Assembly: GCA_964596395.1 (NCBI GenBank)
Contig: CAZQSY010000001.1
Span: 27,763 to 91,762, forward strand
From: an uncultured Candidatus Saccharibacteria bacterium
Lineage (GTDB): Bacteria; Patescibacteriota; Minisyncoccia; Phycocordibacterales; UBA9973
Direction: 5' to 3'
DNA: 64,000 bases
In this document: piece after piece, positions 1 through 21,831 of the stretch
Numbering within the stretch: the stretch's first letter is position 1
Layout of the letters: each line of letters starts with the position of its first letter
The notes under the pieces: model-generated
What the model saw: only the letters and a program-made list of their open reading frames with translations
Told to the model about the DNA's origin: nothing
Database searches by the model: none
Made by a program: the position numbers and the translations under genes

Positions 1-571
1 CAAGAATCAGAATCAAAGGAAGCACAAAGACGAAATTGTAAAGAATAAGGTAAGCAAAACCCCGCCAGTAGCTTGAATAATCGTGAAGCAGCGACAGCAC
101 AAAAAGATACGGGCCGCCCGTGCAGGGAAACTCGAACATCGCTACTAAGGCGCCAAGCAGGAAAAAACCCGGCACGGAACCCTTGTTGATTACTTTCGCC
201 AGCGTGGCGTGCGTGCTTTCGGGTATTTTCAGTTTTACCGGGAAGTTCGGAAAAAATTCGCCCAATAAATTGATACCGCCGTAGGCAAAAAGTATCGCCG
301 CCCCGACTTTCGCCATTACGTTCGGCGCACCAATCGAAGCGAGCGCGCGAAGCATGCCGAGGCCAATCAGCGTATACACCAGAAATATTGCAAATATATA
401 AACCCCGCCCGAGAGCAGTACAAACTTCCTGTCTTTACCCAAACTGAACAAAAAAGCAATCGTCAAAAAAAGCACCGAAATAGCGCACGGATTTATGCTG
501 TCTATCAGCGCCGAGACAACAATCACCGGCAGAAACCCGCCCGCGCCGAGAGCAAAATATTCTGAAAACAT
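1..571 (-). CDS. CcdA/DsbD-family thiol-disulfide transmembrane electron carrier (partial, runs off window start)
   Basis: Manual translation of minus strand from ATG at 569-571: MFSEYFALGAGGFLPVIVVSALIDSINPCAISV...FEFPCTGGPYLF; paralogous to ORF 15933..16712 (same two conserved Cys motifs PC and FPC(M/T)GGPYL). Confidence 0.6.
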   Translation of the reverse strand, partial: MFSEYFALGAGGFLPVIVVSALIDSINPCAISVLFLTIAFLFSLGKDRKFVLLSGGVYIFAIFLVYTLIGLGMLRALASIGAPNVMAKVGAAILFAYGGINLLGEFFPNFPVKLKIPESTHATLAKVINKGSVPGFFLLGALVAMFEFPCTGGPYLFVLSLLHDYSSYWRGFAYLILYNFVFVLPLILIL

Positions 572-624
572 GCGAGTATAATATCACTTTCCCATAGAAT
601 CATCCAGTCGCCGACAAAGCACCT

Positions 625-1113
625 CTAAAATTTTTCACCTGGTCTTGCTTGTGCCACCGCCTGCCGGATAGCCGCTTCCAGTTTTTCAGGCTCATCGGTT
701 CCTATGCGGTAAATTTTCCCGTCCTTCATGCGAATTTCAACCGCGTCAAAACCGGAAACGTTAAAAATCCACGTCTTCGGCCAAAGCCACAATCGTATGC
801 CCCAACCGTAATACCAGTGATTTTTTACTCTTGTTGCTGACACGATTTCGCTCGTCGCGAATTTTTTGTGAAAAATGCCGTAGCCGAACTTGACCGTCAC
901 ACGCTCCTCATCCACATTGACCGTAAGCGCGCCGAAGGACGAAAGAACGAATAAAATTAACGCCATCACCGAGGTCACGAGTAAATTTGTGCCCGAGTCG
1001 TAAGAAGGCGGCTCAGCTCTCGCCGTAATTTGGACCCACGCGAACAGAACCAGAACAGCCAGCGTGACAAAAACCATCAGATAACCGATTTGTGTGTGGC
1101 GATATGGTTGCAT
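625..1113 (-). CDS. membrane-anchored bacterial PH (bPH_2/YdbT-like) domain protein
   Basis: two N-terminal TM helices followed by ~90 aa soluble domain with W/G-rich bPH-like pattern; weak family assignment. Confidence 0.35.
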   Translation of the reverse strand: MQPYRHTQIGYLMVFVTLAVLVLFAWVQITARAEPPSYDSGTNLLVTSVMALILFVLSSFGALTVNVDEERVTVKFGYGIFHKKFATSEIVSATRVKNHWYYGWGIRLWLWPKTWIFNVSGFDAVEIRMKDGKIYRIGTDEPEKLEAAIRQAVAQARPGEKF

Positions 1114-1130
1114 AATTAGCTAATTATACC

Positions 1131-1154
1131 ACGTCATGATTCGAATAATGACGT
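1131..1154. promoter_or_regulatory. inverted repeat ACGTCAT-N10-ATGACGT downstream of AbrB-like gene
   Basis: seen directly: ccACGTCATgattcgaataATGACGTcc. Confidence 0.3.
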
Positions 1155-1207
1155 CCAAATTTCGATACCTAACACGAATGTTTATAATTGTACGAAAAAC
1201 GATATTC

Positions 1208-1438
1208 TTACTTCTTCCAATCCCTAATTTGCACACCTCCATTGATCTTTTTCACCGAGAGTTTCTGCTTTTCCTTCCAGCCCAGGGATTTCAGAATTTC
1301 CACCGGAATTGAAACAACCAAGCTGGTACTGCCCGATTTCATCAATTTCCTCACGTTTTTATCCTTGTATTTTTTATCCGCCATGATATTATCGCTTATT
1401 TTAATTTTATCCACGTCAGTATTCAAATAATGATTCAA
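1208..1438 (-). CDS. SpoVT/AbrB (MazE-like) family small DNA-binding protein
   Basis: 76 aa; core LMKSGSTSLVVSIPVEILKSLGWKEKQKLSVKKINGGVQIRDWKK matches swapped-hairpin AbrB/MazE fold pattern; paralog at 21080..21259. Confidence 0.5.
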   Translation of the reverse strand: MNHYLNTDVDKIKISDNIMADKKYKDKNVRKLMKSGSTSLVVSIPVEILKSLGWKEKQKLSVKKINGGVQIRDWKK

Positions 1439-1452
1439 ATACTGACGTCTTA
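1417..1452. promoter_or_regulatory. 36-bp palindrome (11-bp arms ACGTCAGTATT / AATACTGACGT) immediately upstream of AbrB-like gene; putative autoregulatory operator
   Basis: seen directly in sequence; shares ACGTCA...TGACGT core with 1131..1154 repeat. Confidence 0.35.
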
Positions 1453-1494
1453 TTTCTCCATCATACCACCAGTCTGACCCTAGCAGAAACTGTT

Positions 1495-2235
1495 TTATCC
1501 TAGGGTAACTAGACTCATTCCCCCGTCAACGGTTAACACCTCGCCACACAGAGCATCATTTTTTGCCAGAAAAACTACCGCATCGGCGATTTCCTCTGGT
1601 TGTATCATTCTTTTTATTAGATGGACCTGCCCTAATCTTTTTTGTTTCTTTGCATTAAGATTATCCCACATGGGAGTTGCCACACGCCCCGGAGCAATAG
1701 CATTAACGAGTATTTTGGGCGCGAGATCTTTGGCTAAATTTTTCGTCCAATTTTCCAGGGCGGCCTTCAGGGCAGAATAGGCGGCGGCGGCTGGTCTACC
1801 GTATCCCAGTCGTCCGTGTATTGAGGAAATATTTACTATTTTCCCCGTCCGCATTAAGGGAAGAACGTACTTGGTTACCATCACAGCGCTTAGAAGGTTG
1901 TTCCGAAAAATACTTTCAAGCACTTTGACATTGGTTGGGTCATCGTTTGCGTCAAAAATCCCTGCGTTATTTACGAGCACATCAAAATGAGAAAATTTCC
2001 GCTTTATCTTCTTAAACATTTCAGCTACTTCTTTTTCGTTGGCAGCATCAGCGCGAATAAGCAAGTTTCCTTTAGAGTAAAGATTGCACTCCCTTAAAGT
2101 TTCTTGAGCAGCTTTACGGTCCGATTTAAAATTGATCACCACCGAAGAACCTTCCTTGGCAAAAACAATGGCAATTGCTTTGCCAATTCCCTTTGAGGCC
2201 CCAGTGACCAGCACAACCTTATTTTTCAGTTCCAT
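1495..2235 (-). CDS. short-chain dehydrogenase/reductase (FabG-like 3-oxoacyl-ACP reductase family)
   Basis: VLVTGASKGIGKAIA Rossmann motif, NNAG, YSALKAAL (YxxxK catalytic); start reset to internal ATG (MELKNKVVLVTG). Confidence 0.75.
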   Translation of the reverse strand: MELKNKVVLVTGASKGIGKAIAIVFAKEGSSVVINFKSDRKAAQETLRECNLYSKGNLLIRADAANEKEVAEMFKKIKRKFSHFDVLVNNAGIFDANDDPTNVKVLESIFRNNLLSAVMVTKYVLPLMRTGKIVNISSIHGRLGYGRPAAAAYSALKAALENWTKNLAKDLAPKILVNAIAPGRVATPMWDNLNAKKQKRLGQVHLIKRMIQPEEIADAVVFLAKNDALCGEVLTVDGGMSLVTLG

Positions 2236-2306
2236 TTTTCCATCATACCACCAAATCCCGCATGCCATCAAACTATCGTACGGAATCCTTGCTTCCATCC
2301 TTCACT

Positions 2307-3431
2307 TTACTGGTATTGTATATATATCGGCTTCGGGGAGAGATTAAGGATTTCAGCCGGTGTCATCAGGCGGGAATCTTTTTCGAGCAGGTCGTTTTTG
2401 TAGAAAAGTTTAAAGCCCGTGAACTGCACCGGCTCTTTGTGGACAAATTGCTTATAGGTATTAATTTTTCTTGCCTGATGCCCCCAGCCATCCATATCCA
2501 TGACAATCTGCGTTTCGGGCAAGGGTTTGATGTTTTGGTAATTCGTAACCATGTTCTGAGTAAAACGGTGTATTACCAAAATTTTCGGCGTAAGCTCGTT
2601 TTCCCTCACGACTCTGGCCAAAAAATCCGCCGCGAAATTTATGTCTTTGGCATCGTACGTCCCGATGACTTTGCCCGGTCTGGCCCCCGTCTTCATTGAA
2701 AATTCCGGGTCAATGCCCAGATGCACGTTCGGAAGCTTAAAATATTTTTCAAGCGGCGGAAGCTCTGCCTCTAAATTTGAAAGCCCGACCTGGATATCCA
2801 AGAAAATAAGCGCACCTATTTTCTCGGCCATTTTGAGAACTTTTTCAATCTCTTTGGCCGGCATGCGCGCCCGGTACTTGCCGTCGGCTCCGGCGCTTCC
2901 TTGCGCCACCACCGCGATATAGTGAAGCGCTGGAGTGGCGGGCGTGCCGGGGTCAGCTAATTTCCATTTTTCAACTTCAGCTTTCAGTTTCGCGAGCATT
3001 TCTTCTTCGGGGTACTCGCCGAGCGCCCCCATCTTCTTGGAAAGCAGATTGCCGTAATAGGCGATAATCCGGGAAAAAGGCAGTATCGCTCCGCCGTTCG
3101 GATAAACCGTTTTCGCCGGCCAGAGATTGGGCTTGGGAGGCAAAAGCGGTATGGGCTCGCCGGTTTTCGGGTCGATTTTGGGCTCTACTGTTTTCGGCGG
3201 CGGGTTGTTGGCCAATTCTAAAAGCTTCGCGTCATAAGCCGTTTTGTCGAGCACGGGCGGAGCGGGTTTTTTCTTTACTTCTTCGGCAATTTTCTTTACT
3301 CCGTTTATCACCTTACTAGAAAACACTTCCGGAATAAAAAAATAAAGCAGGACGATAGATATAAGCAGGAAAAAAAGCAAAAAGAGAGTACCACTTGACG
3401 TACCTTTCTGCTTTGAAAAAATATTCATCAT
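2307..3431 (-). CDS. hypothetical N-terminally anchored, Pro-rich linker protein with C-terminal TIM-barrel-like (possible glycoside hydrolase-like, DUF4015-like) domain
   Basis: TM helix + PPPKTVEPKIDPKTGEP linker + ~250 aa conserved-looking domain; family not securely recognised. Confidence 0.25.
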   Translation of the reverse strand: MMNIFSKQKGTSSGTLFLLFFLLISIVLLYFFIPEVFSSKVINGVKKIAEEVKKKPAPPVLDKTAYDAKLLELANNPPPKTVEPKIDPKTGEPIPLLPPKPNLWPAKTVYPNGGAILPFSRIIAYYGNLLSKKMGALGEYPEEEMLAKLKAEVEKWKLADPGTPATPALHYIAVVAQGSAGADGKYRARMPAKEIEKVLKMAEKIGALIFLDIQVGLSNLEAELPPLEKYFKLPNVHLGIDPEFSMKTGARPGKVIGTYDAKDINFAADFLARVVRENELTPKILVIHRFTQNMVTNYQNIKPLPETQIVMDMDGWGHQARKINTYKQFVHKEPVQFTGFKLFYKNDLLEKDSRLMTPAEILNLSPKPIYIQYQ

Positions 3432-4762
3432 TCGCGGGATTTTGCGAGTCCTATAATTTCTTCAACTGTACTGCCTTTTTTGTAAATTAGCAAATCATCG
3501 GTTGGCTTCTTCCATTCCTCCTGTATCGGGCCGACGATTCTCCAGCTTTCAAGTATCTCTTCACTTGAGGCGAACAAACTATGGTCGGAATTAAACGCGC
3601 TGTACAAAACCTGTTCGTAGGCCTCCGGTAATTTTTCATAATGGTCTTTGAAATGAAAACTCAGAACATGCTGGGAGAGTTCCCGTCCGTAGCCCGGCTT
3701 CTTCGCCCATACGCTGAACTTTATGCCCGCGTCCGGCTGTAAACGCAGCAGAAGTTCATTTGATTCGTGCTCCTCGCTTTTCTTGTAACGTATTTTTATT
3801 TCGGTAAACCTGTCCCGCAGCGCTTTGCCGTGGGTGAGCGCCATCGGCACCCCATGCCATTTCGGGTCGTCAGATTCGAGCTGTACCGACACGAATGTCT
3901 CAACATTTGATTTTTCGTTTCCGACTTCTTGCCTGTATCCTTCATACTGTCCGCGCGCGGCGCGCGCGACTTTCAAATGTTTGAGGGTATCTTGACGGCA
4001 CGAAGAAACCTCAGACAAATCGCACTTCGGGGGCAAATCCATCAGAACAAGCGACAGAAGCTGAAGCAGATGGCTCGGCACATAATCCCGCAAAGCGCCG
4101 GTCTGCTCGTAAAAATGCGCCCTGTTTTCGATACCCAGCTCTTCGCTCGCCGTTACCTCGATATTTTCTATAAATTCATTATTCCAAGTTTTTTTGAAAA
4201 GCGAATTGCCGTCGCGGAAGACAATTATGTTCTGCGCCGCTTCCTTGGCCAGATAGTGGTCTATACGGTAGACCTCTTCGGGTTTGAAATATTTTTCTAT
4301 GTGTTCGATTAAGTCCTTGGCGCTCGCGTAATCTTTCCCGAAAGGTTTTTCTAGAAGAAGTTTGCTTTTTCCGCGCTTCGGCAATCCGGCTTTCCCGATG
4401 CATTCTACTATCCCCTTGCATGCCTCGGGCGGTACGGAAAGATAAAAAATTCTCTGCGCCGGCTGGCCGAAAGATTTTTCAATCCCGTCCAAAACTTCTT
4501 CGAGCTTTCTACAATCTCCTTCTTTCTCGGCATCCAGGCGATGAAGTTCCAAATTTTGCCCGACGAATTTCAAATCGCCAGAAGCACGGCACAGGTCTTC
4601 CGCCGAAAGACCGGTCTTCCTGGTAATTCCCACTATCCGAAAATCCTCGGGAAGCATGCTCGCCTGGTGAATCGCTTCAATGGCCGGCAAAAGGTACCGC
4701 CGAGACAAATCGCCGGAAATTCCGAAGATTATTAAAATTGTTGGTTCTCCTTTGTTTGGCAT
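3428..4762 (-). CDS. zwf: glucose-6-phosphate 1-dehydrogenase
   Basis: N-terminal IFGISGDLSRRYLLPAI and RIDHYLAKE active-site signature (G6PD RIDHYLGKE). Confidence 0.85.
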   Translation of the reverse strand: MPNKGEPTILIIFGISGDLSRRYLLPAIEAIHQASMLPEDFRIVGITRKTGLSAEDLCRASGDLKFVGQNLELHRLDAEKEGDCRKLEEVLDGIEKSFGQPAQRIFYLSVPPEACKGIVECIGKAGLPKRGKSKLLLEKPFGKDYASAKDLIEHIEKYFKPEEVYRIDHYLAKEAAQNIIVFRDGNSLFKKTWNNEFIENIEVTASEELGIENRAHFYEQTGALRDYVPSHLLQLLSLVLMDLPPKCDLSEVSSCRQDTLKHLKVARAARGQYEGYRQEVGNEKSNVETFVSVQLESDDPKWHGVPMALTHGKALRDRFTEIKIRYKKSEEHESNELLLRLQPDAGIKFSVWAKKPGYGRELSQHVLSFHFKDHYEKLPEAYEQVLYSAFNSDHSLFASSEEILESWRIVGPIQEEWKKPTDDLLIYKKGSTVEEIIGLAKSRE

Positions 4763-4765
4763 ATT

Positions 4766-5671
4766 TCACTTTCCGTTTAAATCGTGCCCGCCGAAACCAT
4801 TTCTTATCATGGCAAGCAGTTTGGTGGCAAAATTTACTTCTCCTTTCTGCGAACGCAGACGCACTTCAAAAGACGCTTCTATAGACGGCATTTCCATGCC
4901 CATTTCTTTGGCTGTCTCCAGCGCGAAACGCGTCTCACCCGATTCTTTCACGATACCCTCTATCCCCGCCTGTTCCGGATTTTTTTTCAGAGCATCGCGA
5001 GTAAGCTCGTTTAGCCAGGAAGTAATCACACTGTGGCGCTGCCAAACCTCACCCGCCGAAACTAAATCAAGATTTTTGTACGGCCCTTCTTTCAAAAGGC
5101 GATATCCCTCGGCAAGGGATTCCATCATACCATACTCAATCGCGTTGTGGACCATTTTCACAAAATGGCCGGCGCCACTCTCGCCAAAGTAGTGATACCC
5201 GCCTTCTGGCTTGGCTAATTTTTCCAAAACGGGCTCGATTGTTTTAAATGTTTTTGAGTCGCCGCCCACCATCATAGAGAATCCGTTTTGGTAGCCCCAC
5301 ACCCCGCCGCTCGTCCCGACATCTATCAGGACAGAACCGTTTTCAAAAACCAGCTCTGCTCTTTTTTTGGTCAGGCGAAAATCAGAATTTCCTCCGTCAA
5401 TTAAAATACTTTCTTTGGGCACCAGCTTCAGCCATTCATCCAATTCTTTATCAACCGCTTCCGCCGGCACCATCATCCAGATAATTACCCGCTCTCCTTT
5501 AAACGAGCTTACAACTTCTTCTTTTGAATAAGCCGGTATCATCCCCAAAACCTTCATTTCGTCTATCGGACCCCTGCTCCTATTATGGGCAATCACGGCA
5601 AACCCGCCCTCGTGAAGCTTTTTTGCTATTTGCCCTCCCATTCTGCCCAAACCGGAGATTGCTATCTTCAT
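4766..5671 (-). CDS. gnd: 6-phosphogluconate dehydrogenase (decarboxylating), short YqeC/Gnd-like form
   Basis: MKIAISGLGRMGGQIAKKL NAD(P)-binding start, ~300 aa; operon position between pgl and zwf. Confidence 0.75.
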   Translation of the reverse strand: MKIAISGLGRMGGQIAKKLHEGGFAVIAHNRSRGPIDEMKVLGMIPAYSKEEVVSSFKGERVIIWMMVPAEAVDKELDEWLKLVPKESILIDGGNSDFRLTKKRAELVFENGSVLIDVGTSGGVWGYQNGFSMMVGGDSKTFKTIEPVLEKLAKPEGGYHYFGESGAGHFVKMVHNAIEYGMMESLAEGYRLLKEGPYKNLDLVSAGEVWQRHSVITSWLNELTRDALKKNPEQAGIEGIVKESGETRFALETAKEMGMEMPSIEASFEVRLRSQKGEVNFATKLLAMIRNGFGGHDLNGK

Positions 5672-6318
5672 TTTGAATAAAAAATTGTTAATAATGGAAC
5701 TTTTTTCAAAATTTGCGCCGGCTGCTTCGCGATGTCAATACTTTTTTGTAAATCCTCTAGTGCTTCCCTTTTTTCTTCCCCCCGTGCAAACACCACCGCT
5801 TCATCTAGTTTTTCTATGGCCCTCGGTGTCATTGTAATGCGTGAAAAAGCCGGCGTTTCATAACCGCAAGCGTATTCCTCTGAATATACCGCCGGGCTTT
5901 CGGGCAATATGCCGGCAGTGTGCCCATCCGCGCCGACGCCGAACAACCCAATTTTGTAGTCCGCGAAAGAAAGTTCCTCTTTCAACACTTCGTTGAAATT
6001 TTTGGCCGTAGACGCAAAGTCATCCCCAGTGAGCACGGGAATAATTCTTGCCTGCGGAAAATTAAAACCTTTTGATATGAGCTTGGCAAAATTTGAATCG
6101 GAATGCCCCGGCGGGCCGTATCTTTCGTCGGTTAAAGTCACAGTCAAGTTCTTAAGAGAATGCGCCCGCAAAATTTCGGAAATCCCCGCGCCTACTAGCA
6201 CAGAAGACCCTCCGGTCGCGAAGAACAGAACCTTGTTTCCTTCTTCTAGTTTCTTCAGTATGGAAGAAGCGACAAACTCCGCAGAGTTTTCTAACTTCGG
6301 TATGTTTATGAAATTCAC
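5668..6318 (-). CDS. pgl: 6-phosphogluconolactonase (NagB/DevB family)
   Basis: glucosamine-6-P isomerase/6PGL family pattern FFATGGSS...; overlapping stop/start with gnd. Confidence 0.7.
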   Translation of the reverse strand: MNFINIPKLENSAEFVASSILKKLEEGNKVLFFATGGSSVLVGAGISEILRAHSLKNLTVTLTDERYGPPGHSDSNFAKLISKGFNFPQARIIPVLTGDDFASTAKNFNEVLKEELSFADYKIGLFGVGADGHTAGILPESPAVYSEEYACGYETPAFSRITMTPRAIEKLDEAVVFARGEEKREALEDLQKSIDIAKQPAQILKKVPLLTIFYSK

Positions 6319-13125: not shown

Positions 13126-13509
13126 TCAATTAAAATTCACCCTGAAACTGTACATGCCCATACTACAGGTGCCCTGGAGCGGTTTGCCGGCAATGGGTGT
13201 CCCGATATCAATCTCGGTGTCGCCGGAGGGCGATAAAATCTTCTGAAAGCCGACCGAAGGAATCGAAAGCGCGGATGAACAGTCATACACGCCGTTCGTT
13301 TTCACTATAAGTTTCGTCGGTATACCCGCTTTGGCGTTTGAGACCTGCGGAAAATATCCCCCGCCGGCATTAACCGTAACATATTGCACGCCATCTATTA
13401 TTTCTGAATTTTCCACAGGGCCATCCGTCCCGCCCGCGCCGCCCCAGAAGATGATGGCCACGCCCGCGAGAAGCCCGATGGTTAAGATTACGGAAGTAAT
13501 TTTATTCAT
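13126..13509 (-). CDS. small secreted/anchored protein with Cys/Met motif (GTCSMGMY), possible metal-binding
   Basis: N-terminal TM/signal; overlaps start of HMA-transporter gene (operon). Confidence 0.3.
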   Translation of the reverse strand: MNKITSVILTIGLLAGVAIIFWGGAGGTDGPVENSEIIDGVQYVTVNAGGGYFPQVSNAKAGIPTKLIVKTNGVYDCSSALSIPSVGFQKILSPSGDTEIDIGTPIAGKPLQGTCSMGMYSFRVNFN

Positions 13510-14579
13510 ATGTTGAAAATTGGATTAATTATACCTAAACCCGCCAAACCGGAAAGGAGCGCGAAGAGACCGAGACCCGTCACGAAAACCCCGGCTGATT
13601 TGAAGAAAAGCGGCGCGTGTTTCGAATGCGCGAAAGAAGCCGAACCGAAAGAAAGAAGCGACAAAACGGGCAAGGTTCCCAGAGCGAAAGCCGTCATTAT
13701 AAGAAGACCGGAAAGAAAAGAACCCGAAGAAATCGCCGCGACCTGCATCGACTGGGTGAAACCGCACGGCAGGAAAAACGTGCCGAAACCGACCAATACC
13801 GGGGTAAAAGTTCTGTGTTCTATCTTTCTGAAAAATCCGAAAATCGACGAAGGCAGGGTCAGTTTATTTTTGCGAAAAACGCCGGCCAAATCAAGCCCGA
13901 GAGCAAGCATCATCAGAGAAGCGATTATCCCGAGTATTCCCGTGAAAGTGAAATTTATGCCCACCGCTCCGCCTAGCGCCCCCAGTATTCCGCCCAAGAG
14001 AGCGAAACCGCCCAGCCGGCCGGCATGAAACAGTATAAAATTCTTTTTATCGCTCACATTGTCTTGCGAAACTTTTGCCGAAAGAGAGAGTACCAGACCC
14101 CCGACCACCGCCAGACAACTCGAAACCGAAGCAATCAGACCGATTACGAAACTTGCCGTCGGGGTGGTTTTCCCGCCGATGCCGATATTCAAAATCCCGG
14201 ATTTTTGCAGAACAAAGAAAAGCGCGAGGAGTAAAATTCCCAGAGGCATGGCCAGCCAAATCCCCCCGTTTTCCGATTTTTCCACGACTGCCGCCCTTTC
14301 TAAAGAGAGCGCGTAGCCGTGCTGTTTTATTTTTTGCGAGAGAGAGTCGGCGACTTCCTCTGCGCCAAGGTCGCTTTCAATCTGCACGTCAACCGTTTCC
14401 TTTTTCAAGTCAACTTTTACTTTTTCCACTCCTTCCGCTTCTTTCAAAACATCTTCAATCAAGATTTTGCAAGAAGCGCAATGGGTTCCGGAAACATGAA
14501 ATGTGTGTGTTTTCATAAAATTTTTTAAATACTGAAGTTCGACTTCAGTATTTTTAAATCGGCTCATCCTCGGGCGCAC
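13506..14579 (-). CDS. heavy-metal-associated (HMA) domain fused to DsbD_2/TauE-like multi-TM permease
   Basis: N-terminal HMA fold with GTHCASC metal-binding loop; C-terminal ~250 aa polytopic membrane domain. Confidence 0.55.
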   Translation of the reverse strand: MRPRMSRFKNTEVELQYLKNFMKTHTFHVSGTHCASCKILIEDVLKEAEGVEKVKVDLKKETVDVQIESDLGAEEVADSLSQKIKQHGYALSLERAAVVEKSENGGIWLAMPLGILLLALFFVLQKSGILNIGIGGKTTPTASFVIGLIASVSSCLAVVGGLVLSLSAKVSQDNVSDKKNFILFHAGRLGGFALLGGILGALGGAVGINFTFTGILGIIASLMMLALGLDLAGVFRKNKLTLPSSIFGFFRKIEHRTFTPVLVGFGTFFLPCGFTQSMQVAAISSGSFLSGLLIMTAFALGTLPVLSLLSFGSASFAHSKHAPLFFKSAGVFVTGLGLFALLSGLAGLGIINPIFNI

Positions 14580-15084
14580 GGTTATTGTTCGTCTCTATAA
14601 ACTCCTTGATTTTGTCCTCGTCAATTTCCGAAAGCTTAAGAAGATACCCCCAAGAAGTGAGCGCCACCGGCACGTCCAGATTTTCTCTCGGTAGCATAAT
14701 TTTCTTACCAGAAGCTTTACCAAAAGCGTCTTTGATTCTTTCCACATCTTCCACAGGAAGCCCCTGTTTGTACCAAACCACCGCCGCGCCGTGTTCCATG
14801 CTGTGCAACACTAGTTCATCGGCCACGGGTTCGCCTTTTATTCCCGGCCCCGCCGTACCCACCCAATGCCATCCGGTAGTTGGTGGATTCGAACTGTACG
14901 GTGGGTGCACCTCACTCTCACCGACATGCTTCGCCCCATCGTCGGGCATTTTCTCGCCCATCAAAGGTATGGTTTCCCTTTCCTTTTGTTTGGCGGCGTC
15001 CCGGCCAGAATACCAAACTCCACCTAATATCATCAGTAGAGTCACCAACACAATTCCCACGGTTACTTTGTGTTCCGTTGCCAT
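14554..15084 (-). CDS. DUF3105 family membrane-anchored protein
   Basis: HSMEHGAAVVWY conserved motif typical of DUF3105. Confidence 0.5.
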   Translation of the reverse strand: MATEHKVTVGIVLVTLLMILGGVWYSGRDAAKQKERETIPLMGEKMPDDGAKHVGESEVHPPYSSNPPTTGWHWVGTAGPGIKGEPVADELVLHSMEHGAAVVWYKQGLPVEDVERIKDAFGKASGKKIMLPRENLDVPVALTSWGYLLKLSEIDEDKIKEFIETNNNRAPEDEPI

Positions 15085-15105
15085 TGTTCAATTTTACCCG
15101 ACTGT

Positions 15106-15936
15106 TTAAATTCCGCAACCTGTCCCGCTCTTTTTTTCCTGCGGCTCAACCTGGGACATTACTTTTCTGAATCCCGAAGCGCTGGAATATTCCGCCGAAA
15201 TAACTTCCTTCGGGTCGGCTTTTTCCCAATTTACGCCTTTTTGAGCGAAGAAACTTTTTATCGTTTCATACTGCGACGGGAACCAGTAAGTATTCGCTTC
15301 CAGGGCAGCCCGGTACATTTCTCTCTCGCTCGCGCCTTGTGCAGCCATGAGTTCAAGAAGTCCCAGCATGGCCATGCCATGATTGCAGTCGGGGAAATGA
15401 GTCGGGTTGTCGCAACATGGCCGGTAGATATTCTTAGCAACTTTTTCAACCAAAGCCTGCTGTTCATAAGTTAGTTCTACAAAAGAATGCGCGCCGTAAT
15501 GTTCCATTGCGTCACCCTTCGCGAGCGTCCAGCCGCCGGTGGAGGCAAAATTCCCCGCCTTCGCCAAGGCTTCGGCGGGCAAGCCCGCCCCGCCATACGT
15601 CATCATTGGACCTTCTGTTAGAATTAGATTTTTATTGGCAAGCCCGAAAGCCCAGAGTATGTTGAGCATCATTCCGGAATTTTCTTTGGTAATTATCAGG
15701 TTTTTATTGTTCGTGCCATACAGTAATCTTTTATCCGCTTCGGAAAACCCGCCCCTTTCTCTATACAAACTTTCAAACTTATCTTTGTCGATTACTCCAG
15801 CTTCAACCATTTTCCATCCAAGATCCCCCCAATCAAGCAAGGCATGATTTTCTCGCACCACCGGCGAAAAACCCACAAGTAACACGATCAGAATAATTAG
15901 AGCGGAATACAAAATCTCTTTTATTTTTTCTATCAT
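15106..15936 (-). CDS. hypothetical membrane-anchored protein with conserved Cys/His cluster (PCCDNPTHFPDCNHG)
   Basis: start reset to ATG at 15936 (MIEKIKE...), listed ORF N-terminus overlaps CcdA gene in another frame. Confidence 0.4.
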   Translation of the reverse strand: MIEKIKEILYSALIILIVLLVGFSPVVRENHALLDWGDLGWKMVEAGVIDKDKFESLYRERGGFSEADKRLLYGTNNKNLIITKENSGMMLNILWAFGLANKNLILTEGPMMTYGGAGLPAEALAKAGNFASTGGWTLAKGDAMEHYGAHSFVELTYEQQALVEKVAKNIYRPCCDNPTHFPDCNHGMAMLGLLELMAAQGASEREMYRAALEANTYWFPSQYETIKSFFAQKGVNWEKADPKEVISAEYSSASGFRKVMSQVEPQEKKSGTGCGI

Positions 15937-16712
15937 ATGTAGAAGATTAAGATACCGATAATAATCATGGCGATGCCGGCCCAGAGCCGAAGCCCCGCCA
16001 TGTTTTCGCGTTTCCACGTTCCTACCTTTTCCACCATTTCTTTCTTGGCCGATATTAGTAACACCGCCGCGAGCGGCAAGATGAGAATCAAGTTGTAAAG
16101 CAGCAGGTAGCCGAAACCGGCGAAGTACGTCACCTGGTCGCGTAAGAGTCCTATGACCATCAGGTACGGCCCGCCCATGCATGGAAACTGGCAAATGCCC
16201 ACCAGAAACCCCAACCCGAAGACCGCCGGGAAAGAAGCTTTGTCCATCAGCTTAGCCATCGCGCCATGCATGGCGTCGGGAACTTTCAGCTTGATTGGGA
16301 ATTTCGGAAAGAAACGGTTAAGCAAATTCAAAGTCCCGAAAACAATAAGCATAGTTGCTCCCAGTTTACCCATGAAGTGCGGCGTGTTAAAGATATGCAG
16401 TACTTTCAAGACCCCCAGACCAATCAGGAAATAAGCGATAAATATTCCCACCACATAAGTTCCTCCCAGTTCCAAAATTTTCCTCCGGCTCATTTGTATC
16501 CCGAAAAGAAAAGCAATAGTGATGAGTAAGATTGAAAACGAACACGGGTGCACGCTGTCGAGCAAGGCCGAAACGAGAAGGAGTGGCAAGAGCCATGTGC
16601 CTCCGCGGCTGACCTCCCAGAGCAGAGAAGAAACCGCCGGACTGTTTTTGAGAATCACCAAACCAACGATAGCGGCAATGATGATACTGACAGTAATAAT
16701 TATTTTTTTCAT
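15933..16712 (-). CDS. ccdA: CcdA/DsbD-family cytochrome c-type biogenesis / thiol-disulfide transmembrane protein
   Basis: LLDSVHPCSF and FPCMGGPYL conserved Cys motifs, 6-7 TM. Confidence 0.7.
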   Translation of the reverse strand: MKKIIITVSIIIAAIVGLVILKNSPAVSSLLWEVSRGGTWLLPLLLVSALLDSVHPCSFSILLITIAFLFGIQMSRRKILELGGTYVVGIFIAYFLIGLGVLKVLHIFNTPHFMGKLGATMLIVFGTLNLLNRFFPKFPIKLKVPDAMHGAMAKLMDKASFPAVFGLGFLVGICQFPCMGGPYLMVIGLLRDQVTYFAGFGYLLLYNLILILPLAAVLLISAKKEMVEKVGTWKRENMAGLRLWAGIAMIIIGILIFYI

Positions 16713-16719
16713 GATTTTA

Positions 16720-17253
16720 TTAAGGCGTTACGTTCGCCTTGATTTCTAATTGCAGCACTTCACCGTTCGAATCTTCTAAGAAAACAAACCGGTCGACCAT
16801 GCCGACACCGGCCGGTCCGTGCGCATTCGGATCATACACGACTTCTATATCTCTCGACTCTCCCGCCCTGATTGTCTCGTTCAATCTAGGCACGGAGCTT
16901 CCATGCCCCGGCATACCAAAAGGACCTTTGCGGGTTCCGTCCGGCCGGATGAGGTAAGCTGTCGTGCACATGCAGGAAGTCGTCAGCTTCGAAATTTCGA
17001 CCTCCCCGCTTCCGGCGTTGGTTATTTTGAACACCTTGCTTACATTCCCGTTTTTCATGGAGATCGTTCCGAAGTCGTACAATTTTTCTTCAGTAGTCAA
17101 AACATCGCCCTTTCGTGCTAGATGGAAATTACCCGACGTACTGATGCTGTCTTGCGAATTCACTTTGCTGCCCGGCCTGGCATACAAGAGCAGTCCAGCG
17201 AGAAGCACCACGATAACAATTACAAACGAAAAGATTCTATTTTTGTCTGTCAT
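16720..17253 (-). CDS. DUF1573 domain protein (Ig-like, commonly CcdA-associated)
   Basis: YDFGTI...TNAG..E..I motif pattern; N-terminal TM anchor. Confidence 0.5.
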   Translation of the reverse strand: MTDKNRIFSFVIVIVVLLAGLLLYARPGSKVNSQDSISTSGNFHLARKGDVLTTEEKLYDFGTISMKNGNVSKVFKITNAGSGEVEISKLTTSCMCTTAYLIRPDGTRKGPFGMPGHGSSVPRLNETIRAGESRDIEVVYDPNAHGPAGVGMVDRFVFLEDSNGEVLQLEIKANVTP

Positions 17254-17340
17254 AAATTTTTAACAAAGCAAATAGTAAAAACCCCTGTCAGGGATTTCAG
17301 AAAGACACAGCCAGAGATTTTTACGACAAAAATTCTAGAG

Positions 17341-17754
17341 CTATGTCCGGTGTAAAGGAGAGGGACTATTCTCAAAAAGCGAAAGCCATTTAATGATTTC
17401 GCTTAAGTATTTATGTAAATTATTATTTCTTAGATAAGATATCCTTTTATAAAAATTCCGCGCGAGATTCGAGAAATTAATCTTTTCAAGGAAGTAAAAA
17501 ATTATTCCCAGCGTCAAAATTAAAAACGCGAAAACCGAAGAAGATACGACATTAGAAAATTCCTGCCAGTTATCTATGTGCTTAAAATTGTTCGAACAGA
17601 GCGAAAACGCGCCCTGAGCATAGGGGCAGTTGGCCATGGGCATCTCTGAAGTGTGGCTGAATTGAAGCAAGCCAAATATCCCCGCACTCATGTAAGCGAA
17701 GAAAATCAGAAATCCTAAAAGCTTTATAAAAAATTTCGCTCCGCGTAAATTCAT
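17341..17754 (-). CDS. hypothetical membrane protein
   Basis: 2 TM helices; CPYAQGAFSLC motif; no family recognised. Confidence 0.3.
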   Translation of the reverse strand: MNLRGAKFFIKLLGFLIFFAYMSAGIFGLLQFSHTSEMPMANCPYAQGAFSLCSNNFKHIDNWQEFSNVVSSSVFAFLILTLGIIFYFLEKINFSNLARNFYKRISYLRNNNLHKYLSEIIKWLSLFENSPSPLHRT

Positions 17755-17760
17755 TTTGTT

Positions 17761-17880
17761 ATTTACCGATTTGCTTAATCAGCCAGATGCCAACCAAAAC
17801 GAGGTCCACTAAAAGTATCAAGGCCACGATAGAACCCCAACCTCCTCCCATCATTCCACCATATCCATATCCCATCATAA
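17761..17880 (-). CDS. unannotated 39-aa Gly/Met-rich micropeptide with C-terminal TM helix (MMGYGYGGMMGGGWGSIVALILLVDLVLVGIWLIKQIGK)
   Basis: manual translation; sits between copA and membrane protein; below ORF-track cutoff. Confidence 0.3.
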
Positions 17881-17926
17881 AATGATTTTTAAATTACCCT
17901 TGTTCTTAATCTCGACCTTTATAATT

Positions 17927-20230
17927 TTACAACTTTTTGCCTTTAATGCGAAGCGAATTACCTACCACCGATACGCTAGACATAGCCATAGCGAAGCCGG
18001 CAAACACCGGCGACAAAAGCCAGCCGAAGATTGGATAAAAAATTCCAGAGGCGAGCGGTATGCCGACAATGTTGTAAATGAATGCCCAGAAAAGATTTTG
18101 CTTGATGCCGCGCATAGTCATCTTGGAAAGTTTGATTGCCTTGACTAATTTTGAAATATCGCCATTAAGCAGCGTGATGCCCGCCGATTCGATAGCTACG
18201 TCGGTGCCGGTAGCCATAGCGATGCCGACATCGGCCTGCGCCAAGGCCGGCGCATCATTCACGCCGTCGCCGGCCATCGCCACCACTTTACCCTGCGACT
18301 GCAGCTCTTTTATTTTTTCTAGTTTGTCCTGCGGCAAAACGTGGGCTATCACCTCGTCAATGCCGGCAAGCGAAGCTATGTACTTACCCGCCTTCTCTTC
18401 GTCGCCGGTCAGCATGATTACTTTGATTCCGAGCTTGTGCAAACTCGCCACCGCTTCTTTTGATTCTTTTTTGATTTCATCGGCCACCATCACAAATCCT
18501 AAAATCTTGTCTCGCGCGGCCAGAATAACCGGTGTTTTACCTTGGGTCGTGAAAACATCGAGATTCAAAGACCCAGTCTCCAGACCCAAATCCATAGCCA
18601 GTTTGGCGTTGCCGGCAAAATACTCTATTTCATCTATAATTCCTTTTACACCCTTGCCTTGAATGTTTTCAAATCCGGAAACATCCCTGGCTTCAATATT
18701 TTTTTCTTTGGCATAATTCATAATCGCGCTCGCAATCGGATGCTCGGATTTTTTCTCCAAAGATGCCAGTATCGCGACCAATTCTTCGTCTTTCAAATTT
18801 GAAAAGTTTTTGATGTCCACCAATGTCGGTTTGCCTAAAGTAATAGTGCCGGTCTTATCCACCACCACGGTATCAACCCTGTGAAGTTTTTCCAAAGTCG
18901 CCGCGTCCTTGATTAAAATTCCCTCCCTGGCGCCCTTGCCCACGCCGACGATAATCGCCGTCGGTGTAGCGAGCCCCAAAGCGCACGGACAGGCAATCAC
19001 CAAAATTCCCACAAAAGAAACCAGACCAAAAGAAAGCGCCTGGGAAAAACCGAGATAGCCCGTGCCAAAGATTAGCCAAGACCCAAGAGCAATAAAAGCG
19101 AGCGCCAAAACGACAGGCACAAAGACGCTTGAAATTTTGTCGGCCAAGGCCTGTATCGGCGCTTTGCTTCCCTGCGCTTCTTCTACCATTTTGATTATAT
19201 GGGCGAGCAATGTTTCAGAACCAACCTTGATTGCTTTGAAATTAAACGAACCGGTAGTGTTTATGGTGCCGGCTGTCACGCTGTCGCCCGCCTTTTTATC
19301 GGCCGGCATCGGCTCGCCGGTAACCATTGATTCATCAACGTACGAAGAGCCTTCGGTGATTACGCCGTCAACCGGGATCTTTGCTCCCGGCTTCACAATA
19401 ATCAAATCACCGTGAATTACTTCTTCAATTGGGATTTCAATCTCTTTGCCGCCGCGAATTACTAAAGCTGTCTTGGCTTGCAAATTCAAAAGTTTTTCAA
19501 TCGCGTCGCCGGTTTTTATTTTCGACTTCGCCTCCAAATATTTTCCGAGCGCGATGAAAGTAATCACGATAATCGTCACATCATAATAATTTGCGTCAAC
19601 ATTTATAAACGGCGCGAGTGTTTCTTCAAAAGCCGTGACCGCGAAACTGTACAGATACGCCGCGAGCGTTCCTATGCCTATGAGCGTGTCCATATTGGCA
19701 GCGCCGTGGCGCAGAAAGCGGTAGAAACCGAGAAGGTAGGGCTTGCCCACCACGAAAAGCACATAAGTCGCCATTACCGGCAAAAGATGATGAAAAAATT
19801 CCATCAGAATCGGATTCATCTCTGGCGTAACTTCATACTTTATTAAAATCTCCCAAACCATCACAAGAACGCTTATAACGGCCAGCGGCGCGGCTATATT
19901 TAATTTATTCCGCATATCGGCCAACTCAGCCAGTTTTTCCGTTTTGGACTGGCTCAATCCCAAGTGTGCTTTGTGTTCATTTTCACTCATACTCATTTCT
20001 TCGGCGGTCAAATGAGAAGAAGGGAGGATTAAAGAGTATCCAAACGGCTCTATTTTTTTAGATAAATTTTCGGGGCTAGTCTTTAAATTATCAAAGCTCA
20101 CTTTTACCGATTCCGTGCCGTAGTTCGCTTCCGCTTTTTCCACTCCTTCGGTTTTCTTGAAAGTTCTTTCGATAATTCCGGCACAAGAAGCGCAGTGCAT
20201 ACCTTTTATTTTGTAAGTTTCAGTTTTCAT
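17927..20230 (-). CDS. copA: copper-translocating P1B-type ATPase
   Basis: N-terminal HMA (GMHCASC), CPC (ACPCALG), DKTGT, MLTGD, GDGVNDAPAL. Confidence 0.9.
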   Translation of the reverse strand: MKTETYKIKGMHCASCAGIIERTFKKTEGVEKAEANYGTESVKVSFDNLKTSPENLSKKIEPFGYSLILPSSHLTAEEMSMSENEHKAHLGLSQSKTEKLAELADMRNKLNIAAPLAVISVLVMVWEILIKYEVTPEMNPILMEFFHHLLPVMATYVLFVVGKPYLLGFYRFLRHGAANMDTLIGIGTLAAYLYSFAVTAFEETLAPFINVDANYYDVTIIVITFIALGKYLEAKSKIKTGDAIEKLLNLQAKTALVIRGGKEIEIPIEEVIHGDLIIVKPGAKIPVDGVITEGSSYVDESMVTGEPMPADKKAGDSVTAGTINTTGSFNFKAIKVGSETLLAHIIKMVEEAQGSKAPIQALADKISSVFVPVVLALAFIALGSWLIFGTGYLGFSQALSFGLVSFVGILVIACPCALGLATPTAIIVGVGKGAREGILIKDAATLEKLHRVDTVVVDKTGTITLGKPTLVDIKNFSNLKDEELVAILASLEKKSEHPIASAIMNYAKEKNIEARDVSGFENIQGKGVKGIIDEIEYFAGNAKLAMDLGLETGSLNLDVFTTQGKTPVILAARDKILGFVMVADEIKKESKEAVASLHKLGIKVIMLTGDEEKAGKYIASLAGIDEVIAHVLPQDKLEKIKELQSQGKVVAMAGDGVNDAPALAQADVGIAMATGTDVAIESAGITLLNGDISKLVKAIKLSKMTMRGIKQNLFWAFIYNIVGIPLASGIFYPIFGWLLSPVFAGFAMAMSSVSVVGNSLRIKGKKL

Positions 20231-20237
20231 AAAAATT

Positions 20238-20501
20238 TTACTTGCGCTTTAACTGGTAAACTTTCAAAATTTCCTTAGTGGCTTTGCTCGTCTCGCCGTT
20301 CTTAATCTGATTCACCACGCAATGCCCCAAGTGACCCTCGAGCAGCTGGTCTTCGATATTAGAAAGACCCTGTTTCACGGCTGAAGTTTGGGTGATAATA
20401 TCAACACAGTACGAACCCTTCTCTACCATGCCTTGCAGCCCCCGAACCTGGCCTTCAAGTATTTTTAATCTCCTTAAAATTTTTCCTTTATTTGCTTGCA
20501 T
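20238..20501 (-). CDS. csoR: CsoR/RcnR-family copper-sensing transcriptional repressor
   Basis: 87 aa; Cys (SYCVD) and H-x3-C (GHLGHC) ligand pattern of CsoR. Confidence 0.8.
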   Translation of the reverse strand: MQANKGKILRRLKILEGQVRGLQGMVEKGSYCVDIITQTSAVKQGLSNIEDQLLEGHLGHCVVNQIKNGETSKATKEILKVYQLKRK

Positions 20502-20512
20502 GCCAAAAGTAT

Positions 20513-20530
20513 ATACCCCCCTGGGGGTAT
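20513..20530. promoter_or_regulatory. CsoR-type operator: GC-tract palindrome ATACCCCC-CT-GGGGGTAT
   Basis: perfect 8-bp arms seen in sequence, 12 bp upstream of csoR start; resembles B. subtilis copZA operator TACCC-N-GGGTA. Confidence 0.7.
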
Positions 20531-20633
20531 TGTCAAATAGAGTGTGGAAAACTATTTTTCAATAGCAAAAAATTTCTTCGTAAGCTCAGGATGTTCTTTT
20601 ATCGCCCCGGAATTTAAAACATATTTTGTCATT

Positions 20634-21083
20634 TCATCTAAGACGATTCGTGTCTCTTTTAATTTCTAAAGCTTTCTCGTCGCGCCATTTGAAATAATCT
20701 TTAAGTATTTCTTTGCTATAAAAAGCCAATTCCATTGTGTCTATCTCTTGTTTAGAAAAATACTGCAACTTTTGCCCTTCATGCAATTCAGTTTTTGCAA
20801 TATCCAAATCTATTTTTAAATAGAATACATATTCCGTTTTTTCTTTCCATTTATAAATCTTAAAAATGGGGGCGTCGGAAAATTCTAATTCTATTTCTTC
20901 TTTCATCTCTCTTCTAATGGCTTCAAGTGGGAAAGTTTCATACGGTTCAACTATTCCTCCGGGGATATCCCATTTATTTGGATATGGAATTTCTGGTTTA
21001 TCATCTCTTAATAAGAGCAGTATTTCTCCTTTTGTATTTTCAATTATCAGGCAAACAACTTTTTTCCTGTCTTGCTTTTTCAT
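20634..21083 (-). CDS. NUDIX hydrolase
   Basis: Nudix box GGIVEPYETFPLEAIRREMKEEIELE; track start at 21095 is TTG; internal ATG at 21083 overlaps stop of upstream micro-gene (ATGA). Confidence 0.75.
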   Translation of the reverse strand: MKKQDRKKVVCLIIENTKGEILLLLRDDKPEIPYPNKWDIPGGIVEPYETFPLEAIRREMKEEIELEFSDAPIFKIYKWKEKTEYVFYLKIDLDIAKTELHEGQKLQYFSKQEIDTMELAFYSKEILKDYFKWRDEKALEIKRDTNRLR

Positions 21084-21259
21084 CTTCTTTTCCAATCTTT
21101 CACTAACAATCCGCCTCGGACTTTGACGACAACAACTTTTTGTTTTTCCTTCCAGCCAAGTCCAGCCAAAAAATCTTTTGGTATCGTGACCGCGATAGAA
21201 CCCTTGCCGACTTTTGTCAGCTTGCGAATATTTTTATTAATGAGTTTTTGCGTGGGCAT
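21080..21259 (-). CDS. unannotated 59-aa SpoVT/AbrB (MazE-like) protein, paralog of 1208..1438
   Basis: manual translation MPTQKLINKNIRKLTKVGKGSIAVTIPKDFLAGLGWKEKQKVVVVKVRGGLLVKDWKRR; shares GWKEKQK...DWK with first paralog. Confidence 0.55.
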   Translation of the reverse strand: MPTQKLINKNIRKLTKVGKGSIAVTIPKDFLAGLGWKEKQKVVVVKVRGGLLVKDWKRR

Positions 21260-21405: not shown

Positions 21406-21831
21406 CTAGTAAAAGATTTCAAACGGGTCAAAATTTTCTTTCAGCAGATTCTCGAGAGGTATGAAAAGCGGTCTCGGCAGGTTATCCCATTCAAACCATC
21501 CGAATTCTGTACATTTGTTCGGTTCCATTATACGGGGTTCGCCGCTATCGTAATCGGCGACAACGAACAAAGTCACATAATGCTTGCCTTCTTTGGAAAA
21601 AATGTCATTGGTAAAACACGCCTTTTTAATATTTTTTATCGTTATCCCCATTTCTTCCATCACTTCCCTTCTGGCGCAATCTTCTATACTTTCGCCAAAT
21701 TCCAGATGCCCGCCCGTAAGATTCCAAGTCCCCGCGCCGTGGGACCCTTGACGTTTCCAAAGTAAAACTTTCCCGTCTTTTCTAACCACCACGCCAACTC
21801 CCACCTTCGGTCTCTCTTTTTCGCTTTGCAT
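21406..21831 (-). CDS. NUDIX hydrolase (MutT-like)
   Basis: Nudix box GGHLEFGESIEDCARREVMEEMGI. Confidence 0.75.
   Translation of the reverse strand: MQSEKERPKVGVGVVVRKDGKVLLWKRQGSHGAGTWNLTGGHLEFGESIEDCARREVMEEMGITIKNIKKACFTNDIFSKEGKHYVTLFVVADYDSGEPRIMEPNKCTEFGWFEWDNLPRPLFIPLENLLKENFDPFEIFY

Follow-up and report, generated by a model that had tools for sequence, protein, structure and literature searches.

Copper-export operons and copper-linked envelope reductases are both known. The former are exemplified by the CsoR-CopA(-CopZ) operons of Firmicutes and Actinobacteria, which combine a repressor with Cys-His-Cys (C-H-C) ligands, a TACCC..GGGTA operator over the promoter, and a P1B-1-type CopA; a membrane protein combining an HMA domain with a DsbD-like part (COG2836) has previously been inferred in the CsoR meta-regulon (PMC4938975). 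The latter have their precedent in the Scs proteins of Salmonella, Proteus, and Caulobacter (PMC3322552, PMC10907172, PMC8900818). Two further systems invite comparison, namely the CcdA/DsbD-CcmG/ResA-CcmH thioreduction branch of cytochrome c maturation and the MerP-MerT(-MerA) relay. Here, we analyze a 64,000-nucleotide stretch (the window) of contig CAZQSY010000001.1 from an uncultured Candidatus Saccharibacteria bacterium, a member of the Candidate Phyla Radiation (CPR). Judged by its nearest homologs, the genome is of the Nomurabacteria/Paceibacterota type within Patescibacteria. The window holds a csoR-copA locus that resembles the CsoR-CopA operons and differs from them in lacking CopZ and in carrying eight extra genes, mostly for exofacial or membrane Cys proteins. 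Among these are a divergent CcdA-like membrane protein and a Cys-cluster protein, here called CysX. We propose that the distal genes of a single CsoR-controlled operon encode a copper-induced exofacial thiol/Cu(I) relay, which would receive its reductant from the CcdA-like protein, and we regard this reading as having an even chance of being correct.

At its 5' end, the locus has what defines a CsoR operon: a C-H-C repressor, a promoter that contains a GC-rich inverted-repeat operator, and an ATPase of the P1B-1 type with an N-terminal HMA domain. The repressor residues Cys32, His57, and Cys61 show the 25- and 4-residue spacing of the Cu(I) ligands of CsoR, and the CopA translation contains the CPC, YN, and MxxSS transmembrane (TM) motifs. 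The promoter is the top-scoring one between positions 12000 and 21500, and the operator, a perfect palindrome that stops 12 bp 5' of the csoR ATG, is present as a single copy; a window-wide motif search revealed no second CsoR operator. As seen from related loci, the arrangement is recurrent, with TACCCC-N3-5-GGGGTA found 15 to 38 bp 5' of csoR (mostly 25 to 28 bp) in ~27 of them and preceding copA or the gene for TM137, a 137-aa membrane protein, in a few.

From 13126 to 20536, every gene lies on the minus strand, in the transcription order csoR, copA, a 39-aa open reading frame (ORF), TM137, DUF1573, CcdA-like, CysX, DUF3105, HMA-DsbD_2, and cupredoxin-like (Table 1). Intergenic gaps among these ten genes are at most 172 bp, and there are two 4-nt overlaps, one between the CcdA-like stop and the CysX start and the other between the HMA-DsbD_2 and cupredoxin-like genes. 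This same-strand packing suggests that the last six genes would be co-transcribed as the 3' part of one CsoR-controlled csoR-copA copper operon. These are the six consecutive minus-strand genes that a first-pass annotation of the window had flagged, and all of the ORFs are present. Its identifications of an HMA-DsbD_2 fusion, a DUF3105 protein with an HxxEHG motif (LHSMEHG), a membrane-anchored Cys-cluster protein, and a DUF1573 protein are borne out, and the last of these contains SCMCT; the sixth gene, which it left unnamed, encodes a membrane-anchored cupredoxin-like protein. It had also described the genes as a separate island upstream of a copper module. On the coding strand they lie instead 3' of csoR-copA, in the string behind the CsoR-operator promoter, and the 39-aa ORF and TM137, between copA and DUF1573, had been missed.

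Table 1. Features of the csoR-copA locus and the second CcdA gene, in window coordinates
Feature	Position	Strand	Remarks
Second CcdA paralog	1..571	-	Window-edge fragment, 190 of 231 aa; full-length protein, P0397
Anchored cupredoxin-like protein	13126..13509	-	Cupredoxin_1, 21.4 bits (cut-off 27), E 2.7e-4
HMA-DsbD_2 fusion	13506..14516 (ORF to 14579)	-	PF00403, 46.6 bits; PF13386, 101 bits
DUF3105 protein, anchored	14554..15084	-	PF11303, 86.4 bits; LHSMEHG
CysX, anchored, predicted exofacial, CcmH-like C-terminal domain	15106..15936	-	N-terminal TM anchor; motif PCCDNPTHFPDCNHG
Divergent CcdA-like membrane protein	15933..16712	-	NPC and CxFPC in separate TM helices; extra N-terminal TM
DUF1573 protein	16720..17253	-	PF07610, 48.3 bits; N-terminal anchor and Ig-like domain
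Hairpin	17278-17298	-	9-bp stem, weak T tail; between TM137 and DUF1573
TM137, 137-aa two-TM Cys/His protein	17341..17754	-	Conserved Cys43, Cys53, and His59 in the interhelix loop
39-aa Met/Gly-rich ORF	17759..17878	-	MMGYGYGGMMGGGWG, then one TM helix; read from sequence, unannotated
copA, P1B-type (P1B-1) Cu(I)-exporting ATPase	17927..20230	-	E1-E2_ATPase (196 bits), Hydrolase, HMA; one N-terminal HMA
csoR, copper-sensing repressor	20238..20501	-	Trns_repr_metal, PF02583, 85.3 bits
Promoter TTGACA-17-TATACT	20508..20536	-	11/12 match
CsoR-type operator palindrome	20513-20530	-	ATACCCCCAGGGGGGTAT; between the -35 and -10 elements

To place the locus among its relatives, CysX neighborhoods were compared. 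A one-genome-per-species scan yielded at least 580 confirmed CysX loci, of which the best 80, all from CPR genomes, were analyzed; neighbors were counted within 7 kb of CysX in the 45 loci whose flanks extend at least 5 kb in each direction. CopA or CsoR is found in 42 of the 45, a DsbD-superfamily membrane protein (CcdA-like or DsbD_TM) in 41, TM137 in 35, and DUF1573 in 34. HMA-DsbD_2 (13/45), the cupredoxin-like protein (11/45), and DUF3105 (7/45) complete the list. The conserved core is TM137, DUF1573, CcdA-like, and CysX, with HMA-DsbD_2 and DUF3105 accessory, so that the conserved thiol-redox and metal set proposed in the first-pass annotation keeps its synteny and loses these two members from its core. 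As the arrangement recurs across dozens of CPR genomes, it is far beyond chance.

The slot 5' of CysX is the most informative. It holds DUF1573 and the CcdA-like protein in 38 loci and a Pfam-positive DsbD_TM protein (41.5 bits, with vicinal CC pairs) in 15, the latter accompanied by AhpC/TSA-Redoxin or DUF1573, and the two arrangements never occur together. DUF1573 lies 5' of CcdA-like or DsbD_TM in most loci. Such mutually exclusive replacement indicates that the two modules are functionally equivalent, with DUF1573 taking the place of a thioredoxin (Trx)-fold partner. We consider this modular pattern the strongest argument that a membrane protein and an exofacial partner would supply reductant to CysX within a copper locus. 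Between CcdA-like and CysX there is often a Trx-like CxxC, CC-tail, or 4-TM CxxC protein, the Trx-like type in 12 loci, and CopG/DUF411, DsbA-like, Trx-like, DUF5676, and SHOCT proteins recur in CysX loci.

Several unannotated families also recur among the 80 loci. A 4-TM protein of 149 aa that has a CxxC and a C-terminal CC is found in 29 loci; another 149-aa family, a TM protein with SCC(A/T)H, and a 153-aa family with GGHH are found in 17 loci each; and a soluble protein of 174 aa, with DCC at its end, is found in 14. DUF5676 is found in 16.

CcdA, CcmH-like, and Cys proteins are generic thiol-redox parts, and a second CcdA paralog lies outside the copper context, which would fit a general envelope disulfide-reduction system that has no copper link and stands beside the cop genes by chance. 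Against such a system, CopA or CsoR accompanies CysX nearly everywhere, csoR lies directly 5' of CysX in several loci (L025, L030, and L063), and CopG, HMA, and SHOCT/Met-rich proteins recur; we consider it quite improbable. The first-pass annotation had proposed an extracytoplasmic disulfide- or metal-reduction system and had named no substrate for it. Given the CopA/CsoR linkage in 42 of 45 loci and the CsoR-operator promoter, the substrate is almost certainly copper or copper-damaged or copper-binding thiols.

The likeness to Scs (ScsB-ScsC/ScsD) is functional only, in that both are copper-linked envelope thiol systems in which a DsbD-superfamily membrane protein supplies, or here would supply, reductant to exofacial Cys proteins for Cu(I) binding and/or the repair of copper-oxidized thiols. 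The window operon has no ScsB architecture and no thioredoxin-fold ScsC or ScsD. Its partners are instead an Ig-like DUF1573 protein with a CxC motif and a CcmH-like protein, the set would be CsoR-regulated within a copA operon, and the host is a CPR bacterium rather than a proteobacterium.

We next turn to the members of the core. The CcdA-like protein has no Pfam DsbD_TM match, reaches 24.1 bits for SfLAP (cut-off 35), and gives weak SfLAP, ArsG, and DsbD matches and nothing stronger in the family libraries. Of its 23 orthologs, 7 match DsbD_TM and 16 match SfLAP at E<=0.01. When a profile of these 23 was aligned to the solved Thermus thermophilus CcdA (5VKV) with hhalign, the probability was 94.3% (E 9.6e-8) over 184 columns, with NPC over SPC and FPC over TPC, such that both catalytic Cys are matched. 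C57, C174, and C178 are invariant among the orthologs, and P56 and P177 are invariant or nearly so, such that a Pro-Cys pair stands in each of the first and fourth core TM helices. The protein is thus, by profile alignment, homologous to CcdA across the six-TM core, and its earlier designation as CcdA, which falls short at the Pfam threshold, stands on this alignment. It would relay electrons from thioredoxin in the cytoplasm to a thiol protein on the outer face, as the Trx-like and Redoxin partners in related loci suggest. A profile search against PDB sequences returned nothing meaningful, and the AlphaFold model (pLDDT 46.7), built from a shallow alignment of homologs 76 to 82% identical, was too poor for use.

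A second CcdA paralog, at the window edge, is the more ordinary of the two. The fragment scores 24 bits for DsbD_TM (cut-off 27.1), while the full-length protein P0397 (231 aa) carries PF02683. Partners beyond the window start were taken from the relative L085, in which genes for a CC-tail protein and for an anchored Trx-like protein with WCSHC come after the ortholog of this gene. The two CcdAs, previously read as one system, thus belong to different modules. The second gene lies directly 3' of 6PGL, 6PGD, and G6PD (window 1-6318, minus strand; also L085 1-6686). The oxidative pentose-phosphate enzymes generate NADPH, from which thioredoxin and CcdA ultimately draw their reducing power, and this recurrent linkage may be functional or mere synteny.

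CysX matches no Pfam or NCBIfam family. A word-indexed search nevertheless finds more than 6800 homologs at E<=1e-3, the 120 best matches listed being 56 to 67% identical to the query, and an exhaustive profile search gives 667 clusters at 50% identity, none with a family assignment. In 180 sequences, including 150 divergent representatives, W93, S130-T-G-G-W134, R170-P-C-C173, N175, D181-C-N-H-G185, W216, and C272 are invariant. The AlphaFold model has a pLDDT of 79.5, with residues 151 to 260 mostly above 90 (blocks 83 to 97) and C272 on a disordered C-terminal tail, and its C-terminal domain was scored as having the three-helix-bundle fold of the CcmH/NrfF/CycL periplasmic domain.

The relationship to CcmH emerges only from sensitive comparisons. 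Foldseek against the PDB gave no significant whole-chain match, with CcmH at rank 50 (probability 0.54); a CysX profile against PDB sequences gave nothing meaningful; and Pfam CcmH (PF03918) did not match CysX even at E 10. With hhalign, a 30-sequence CysX profile against two CcmH sequences was not significant, though the register was right. A 163-sequence profile of the C-terminal domain aligned with three CcmH sequences at 82% probability (E 1e-5) and with a set of four at 92.6% (E 4.6e-7), in the same register as the fold match; significance was reached only with the more diverse CysX profile and the larger CcmH set. In this alignment, the Cys cluster falls in the CcmH active-site loop between helices 1 and 2 (RPCC..DCNH in CysX, RCPxC..DSN in CcmH), the second active-site Cys of CcmH aligning with C173 and the first with R170. 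By modeled fold and the more diverse profile, CysX is probably a CcmH homolog and would represent an undescribed, widespread CcmH-derived family. A literature search returned no description of CysX and no account of a CcmH-type domain outside cytochrome c maturation. Some long forms of CysX are fused to multi-TM domains with a membrane CxxC, and others to the 4-TM CxxC protein that is a separate gene in CPR loci. Nothing further came from the gene neighborhoods of P0200, P0217, and P0272.

Together, the two proteins recall the CcdA-CcmG-CcmH branch: a CcdA homolog that keeps both catalytic Cys precedes a CcmH-like domain whose Cys motif lies in the corresponding loop, and, in related loci, a Trx-like CxxC protein stands between them. 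CysX differs from CcmH in having RPCC..DCNH plus a C-terminal Cys rather than LRCxxC, and in an extra N-terminal domain of ~120 aa. The window system also differs from the cytochrome c branch in being copper linked, with no heme-handling proteins or c-type cytochromes seen.

Could the locus be a relic or a modified form of cytochrome c maturation, in which CcdA and a CcmH-like protein reduce the CXXCH of apocytochromes? CysX is a probable homolog of CcmH, and annotation pipelines (NCBI and JGI) name many of the CcdA-like orthologs "cytochrome c biogenesis protein CcdA." Moreover, the GC-rich (65%), non-CPR locus L082 (5481-12928) encodes a long CysX, members of the c9 and c8 families, and a 417-aa CcdA-like protein that matches the window protein at E 9e-61, a few genes ahead of CcmF and CcmH; on the upstream side of this module are genes for a divergent HMA protein and an ordinary CcdA. 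L082 is the one place where the CysX module was seen linked to genuine cytochrome c maturation genes. Neither a WWD heme-handling motif nor a credible CXXCH protein occurs in the window or in 1.05 Mb of related CPR loci, the single CXXCH in the window being in an alternative reading frame of a 376-aa ORF that carries an FtsW/RodA Pfam domain. The canonical CxxC of CcmH is replaced in CysX, the linkage is to CopA and CsoR, and metagenome-assembled genomes (MAGs) of Patescibacteria generally lack electron-transport and respiratory complexes (PMC8672522). On the window and these related loci, cytochrome c maturation was rejected as the function of the locus, and its probability is very slight. 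As the first-pass annotation had supposed, no cytochrome c biogenesis system that would explain CcdA is visible in the window or the related loci, and the pipeline label is probably misleading for this family in these genomes, where no cytochrome c machinery was seen.

The DUF1573 protein has, besides its PF07610 match, a weak OS_HP2 selenoprotein match, and its query against PDB sequences gave nothing meaningful. TSCMCT (CxC) and His145 are invariant, the CxC being kept across 63 sequences. Selenoprotein forms of DUF1573 carry UGC at the CxC motif, that is, they exist as Sec/Cys forms (PMC9312934), which marks the domain as redox-active or metal-binding. TM137, with no match in Pfam or NCBIfam, belongs to a family found in 50 of the 80 related loci, usually directly 5' of DUF1573, and its Lys/Arg-rich tail predicts that the Cys/His loop is outside. 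The 39-aa ORF, 62 to 71% identical in the same position in eight related loci and in another position in a ninth (L028), resembles Met/Gly-rich SHOCT proteins of related loci and may be a Met-rich Cu(I)-binding microprotein, similar in style to these small proteins. For the single-pass proteins, simple hydropathy predicts N-terminal anchors with the Cys/His motifs outside, in agreement with the extracytoplasmic system suggested earlier; the HMA domain of the HMA-DsbD_2 fusion, lacking a signal sequence, is predicted to be cytoplasmic.

The accessory genes complete the operon. The fusion protein, which exceeds the Pfam cut-offs for both HMA (24.8) and DsbD_2 (24.9), joins a cytoplasmic-type CxxC metal-binding domain to a six-TM domain and conserves the HMA CxxC, Cys134, Cys251 (LPCGFTQSMQ), and Met257. 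Translation most likely begins with the ATG at 14516, from which point the orthologs are conserved. The HMA domain of the fusion has weak MerP/MerTP matches, and tblastn against plasmids found no match to the protein. Always 3' of this gene is that for the cupredoxin-like protein, which conserves Cys77, Cys115, Met117, and Met119 and no His and scores below threshold for Cupredoxin_1. The DUF3105 protein has no Cys and conserves His53, His60, His73, His94, and His98; a search of the PDB by sequence found no relative. Its HxxEH recalls inverted zinc-peptidase motifs. Outside the operon, two NUDIX-like ORFs (20634-21095 and 21406-21831, minus strand; the first Pfam confirmed) lie directly 5' of the csoR promoter, and a 663-aa protein with SdrD_B/SpaA prealbumin-like domains (29089-31080, plus strand) is probably a surface adhesin or pilin-type protein.

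Cys pairs running from an exofacial protein over TM helices to a cytoplasmic HMA domain recall MerP-MerT(-MerA), with the differences that the fold is DsbD_2 rather than MerT, that MerA and MerR are missing, and that the context is CsoR/CopA. On a Mer-like scheme, the CcdA-like protein (NPC/CxFPC) and DsbD_2 (SxC/LPC) would be Cu(I) permeases and the exofacial Cys proteins metallochaperones, with no thioredoxin-driven reduction. Such a scheme would account for the fusion of DsbD_2 to a metal-binding HMA and not to a thioredoxin-like domain, for the CxxxC formed by the extra invariant Cys of the CcdA-like family, for the weak matches to the ArsG permease and SfLAP, which belongs to the same superfamily, and for the vicinal CC pairs of CysX and the c7 protein, which are typical metal ligands. 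It is at odds with the alignment of both catalytic Cys with the electron transporter CcdA, with the probable derivation of CysX from a thiol oxidoreductase family, and with the signature of a reductase pathway, seen in the slot alternative of DsbD_TM plus thioredoxin-fold Redoxin and in the Trx-like CxxC proteins of 12 loci. We judge it rather unlikely.

Under the thiol/Cu(I) relay that we propose, a rise in cytoplasmic Cu(I) would cause CsoR to leave its operator, and the whole gene string would be expressed. CopA would pump Cu(I) to the outer face of the membrane, where the anchored TM137 loop, the DUF1573 CxC, and the Cys3-His site and Cys tail of CysX would capture Cu(I) and/or reverse copper-catalyzed disulfides. 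The divergent CcdA would take up reducing equivalents from cytoplasmic thioredoxin and pass them across the membrane to DUF1573, from which they would reach CysX, such that the thiols would be kept reduced in oxidizing, copper-rich surroundings; in other genomes, a Trx or Redoxin partner would take the place of DUF1573 between the CcdA homolog and CysX. The logic would be that of CcdA to CcmG to CcmH thioreduction, redirected to copper. HMA-DsbD_2 and the cupredoxin-like protein may form an accessory second metal-handling pair, with DUF3105 as an accessory His-rich exofacial protein. Links between relay members are supported by fusions, both of CysX to CxxC membrane domains and, in the locus L088, of CcmH to DUF1573.

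Several points weigh against the relay. Family-library scans found no Trx-fold protein in the window operon. The CcdA-like protein lies below Pfam thresholds, and its extra invariant Cys174 creates a membrane CxxxC that would also suit Cu(I) binding. CysX departs from the canonical LRCxxC spacing of CcmH. The 80 loci analyzed are the closest relatives of the window CysX and not a random sample. A hairpin lies between TM137 and DUF1573, and we infer co-transcription beyond copA. Finally, CysX of non-CPR genomes is found near COX2-type cupredoxins, CcmF/CcmH, and cytochrome c, a setting that fits cuproprotein assembly at least as well as detoxification. As to the hairpin itself, it may act as a partial terminator or attenuator, giving two expression levels within the operon.

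The L088 locus illustrates the non-CPR setting. Directly 3' of its CysX homolog, a single protein (1987-2817) consists of a TM anchor, a Pfam-positive CcmH domain (RCPCCENNIGECTC) with the intermediate motif RCPCCEN..EC, and a DUF1573 domain with the same TSCMCT as the window protein. Two further DUF1573 genes come next, and after them PCYCGC, a pair of COX2-type cupredoxins, one of which is fused to cytochrome c, and a Fer4_5 protein. This gene order, together with the cupredoxin-like protein with conserved Cys2Met2 that ends the window operon, raises the main rival to the relay, cuproprotein maturation: DUF1573, CcdA-like, and CysX would reduce the metal-site Cys of an exported cupredoxin-type protein and hand over Cu(I) delivered by CopA. 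Analogues are TlpA/Sco/PCuAC, which serve CuA, and CutF, which serves CutO. There is also precedent for CopA-dependent maturation of an exported cuproenzyme (PMC8456105). Yet only 11 of 45 loci have the cupredoxin-like gene, in contrast to the near-universal CysX-CopA linkage, control by CsoR, a repressor that lets go of DNA when copper is in excess, argues for detoxification, and Patescibacteria generally lack the respiratory complexes, as noted above. Maturation of a cuproprotein is therefore unlikely in our view, if still to be taken seriously.

Searches of the literature on DUF3105, DUF1573, CcmH-like proteins, and CPR copper genes found no description of such a system; what is new is not copper export or copper-linked reduction but the parts used here. 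We suggest, tentatively and at somewhat under even confidence, that CPR and some respiring bacteria have a copper-specific thiol relay descended from the cytochrome c thioreduction branch, in which a divergent CcdA feeds DUF1573 and CysX and in which the invariant Cys3-His site and the Cys-bearing C-terminal arm of CysX act on Cu(I) or copper-site Cys in place of apocytochrome, and that it serves as the main extracytoplasmic copper-handling machinery of cytochrome-free organisms. CysX has thousands of members over many CPR lineages, with identities of 53 to 67% among the closest relatives listed, and no family model. If the relay is real, it would give a first function to DUF1573 and to several thousand unannotated CysX-family proteins, and would provide several uncharacterized domains with functions that can be put to the test. 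It would also explain how the exposed surface thiols of minimal bacteria that do not respire are shielded from copper, with redox parts of cytochrome maturation redeployed for metal handling.

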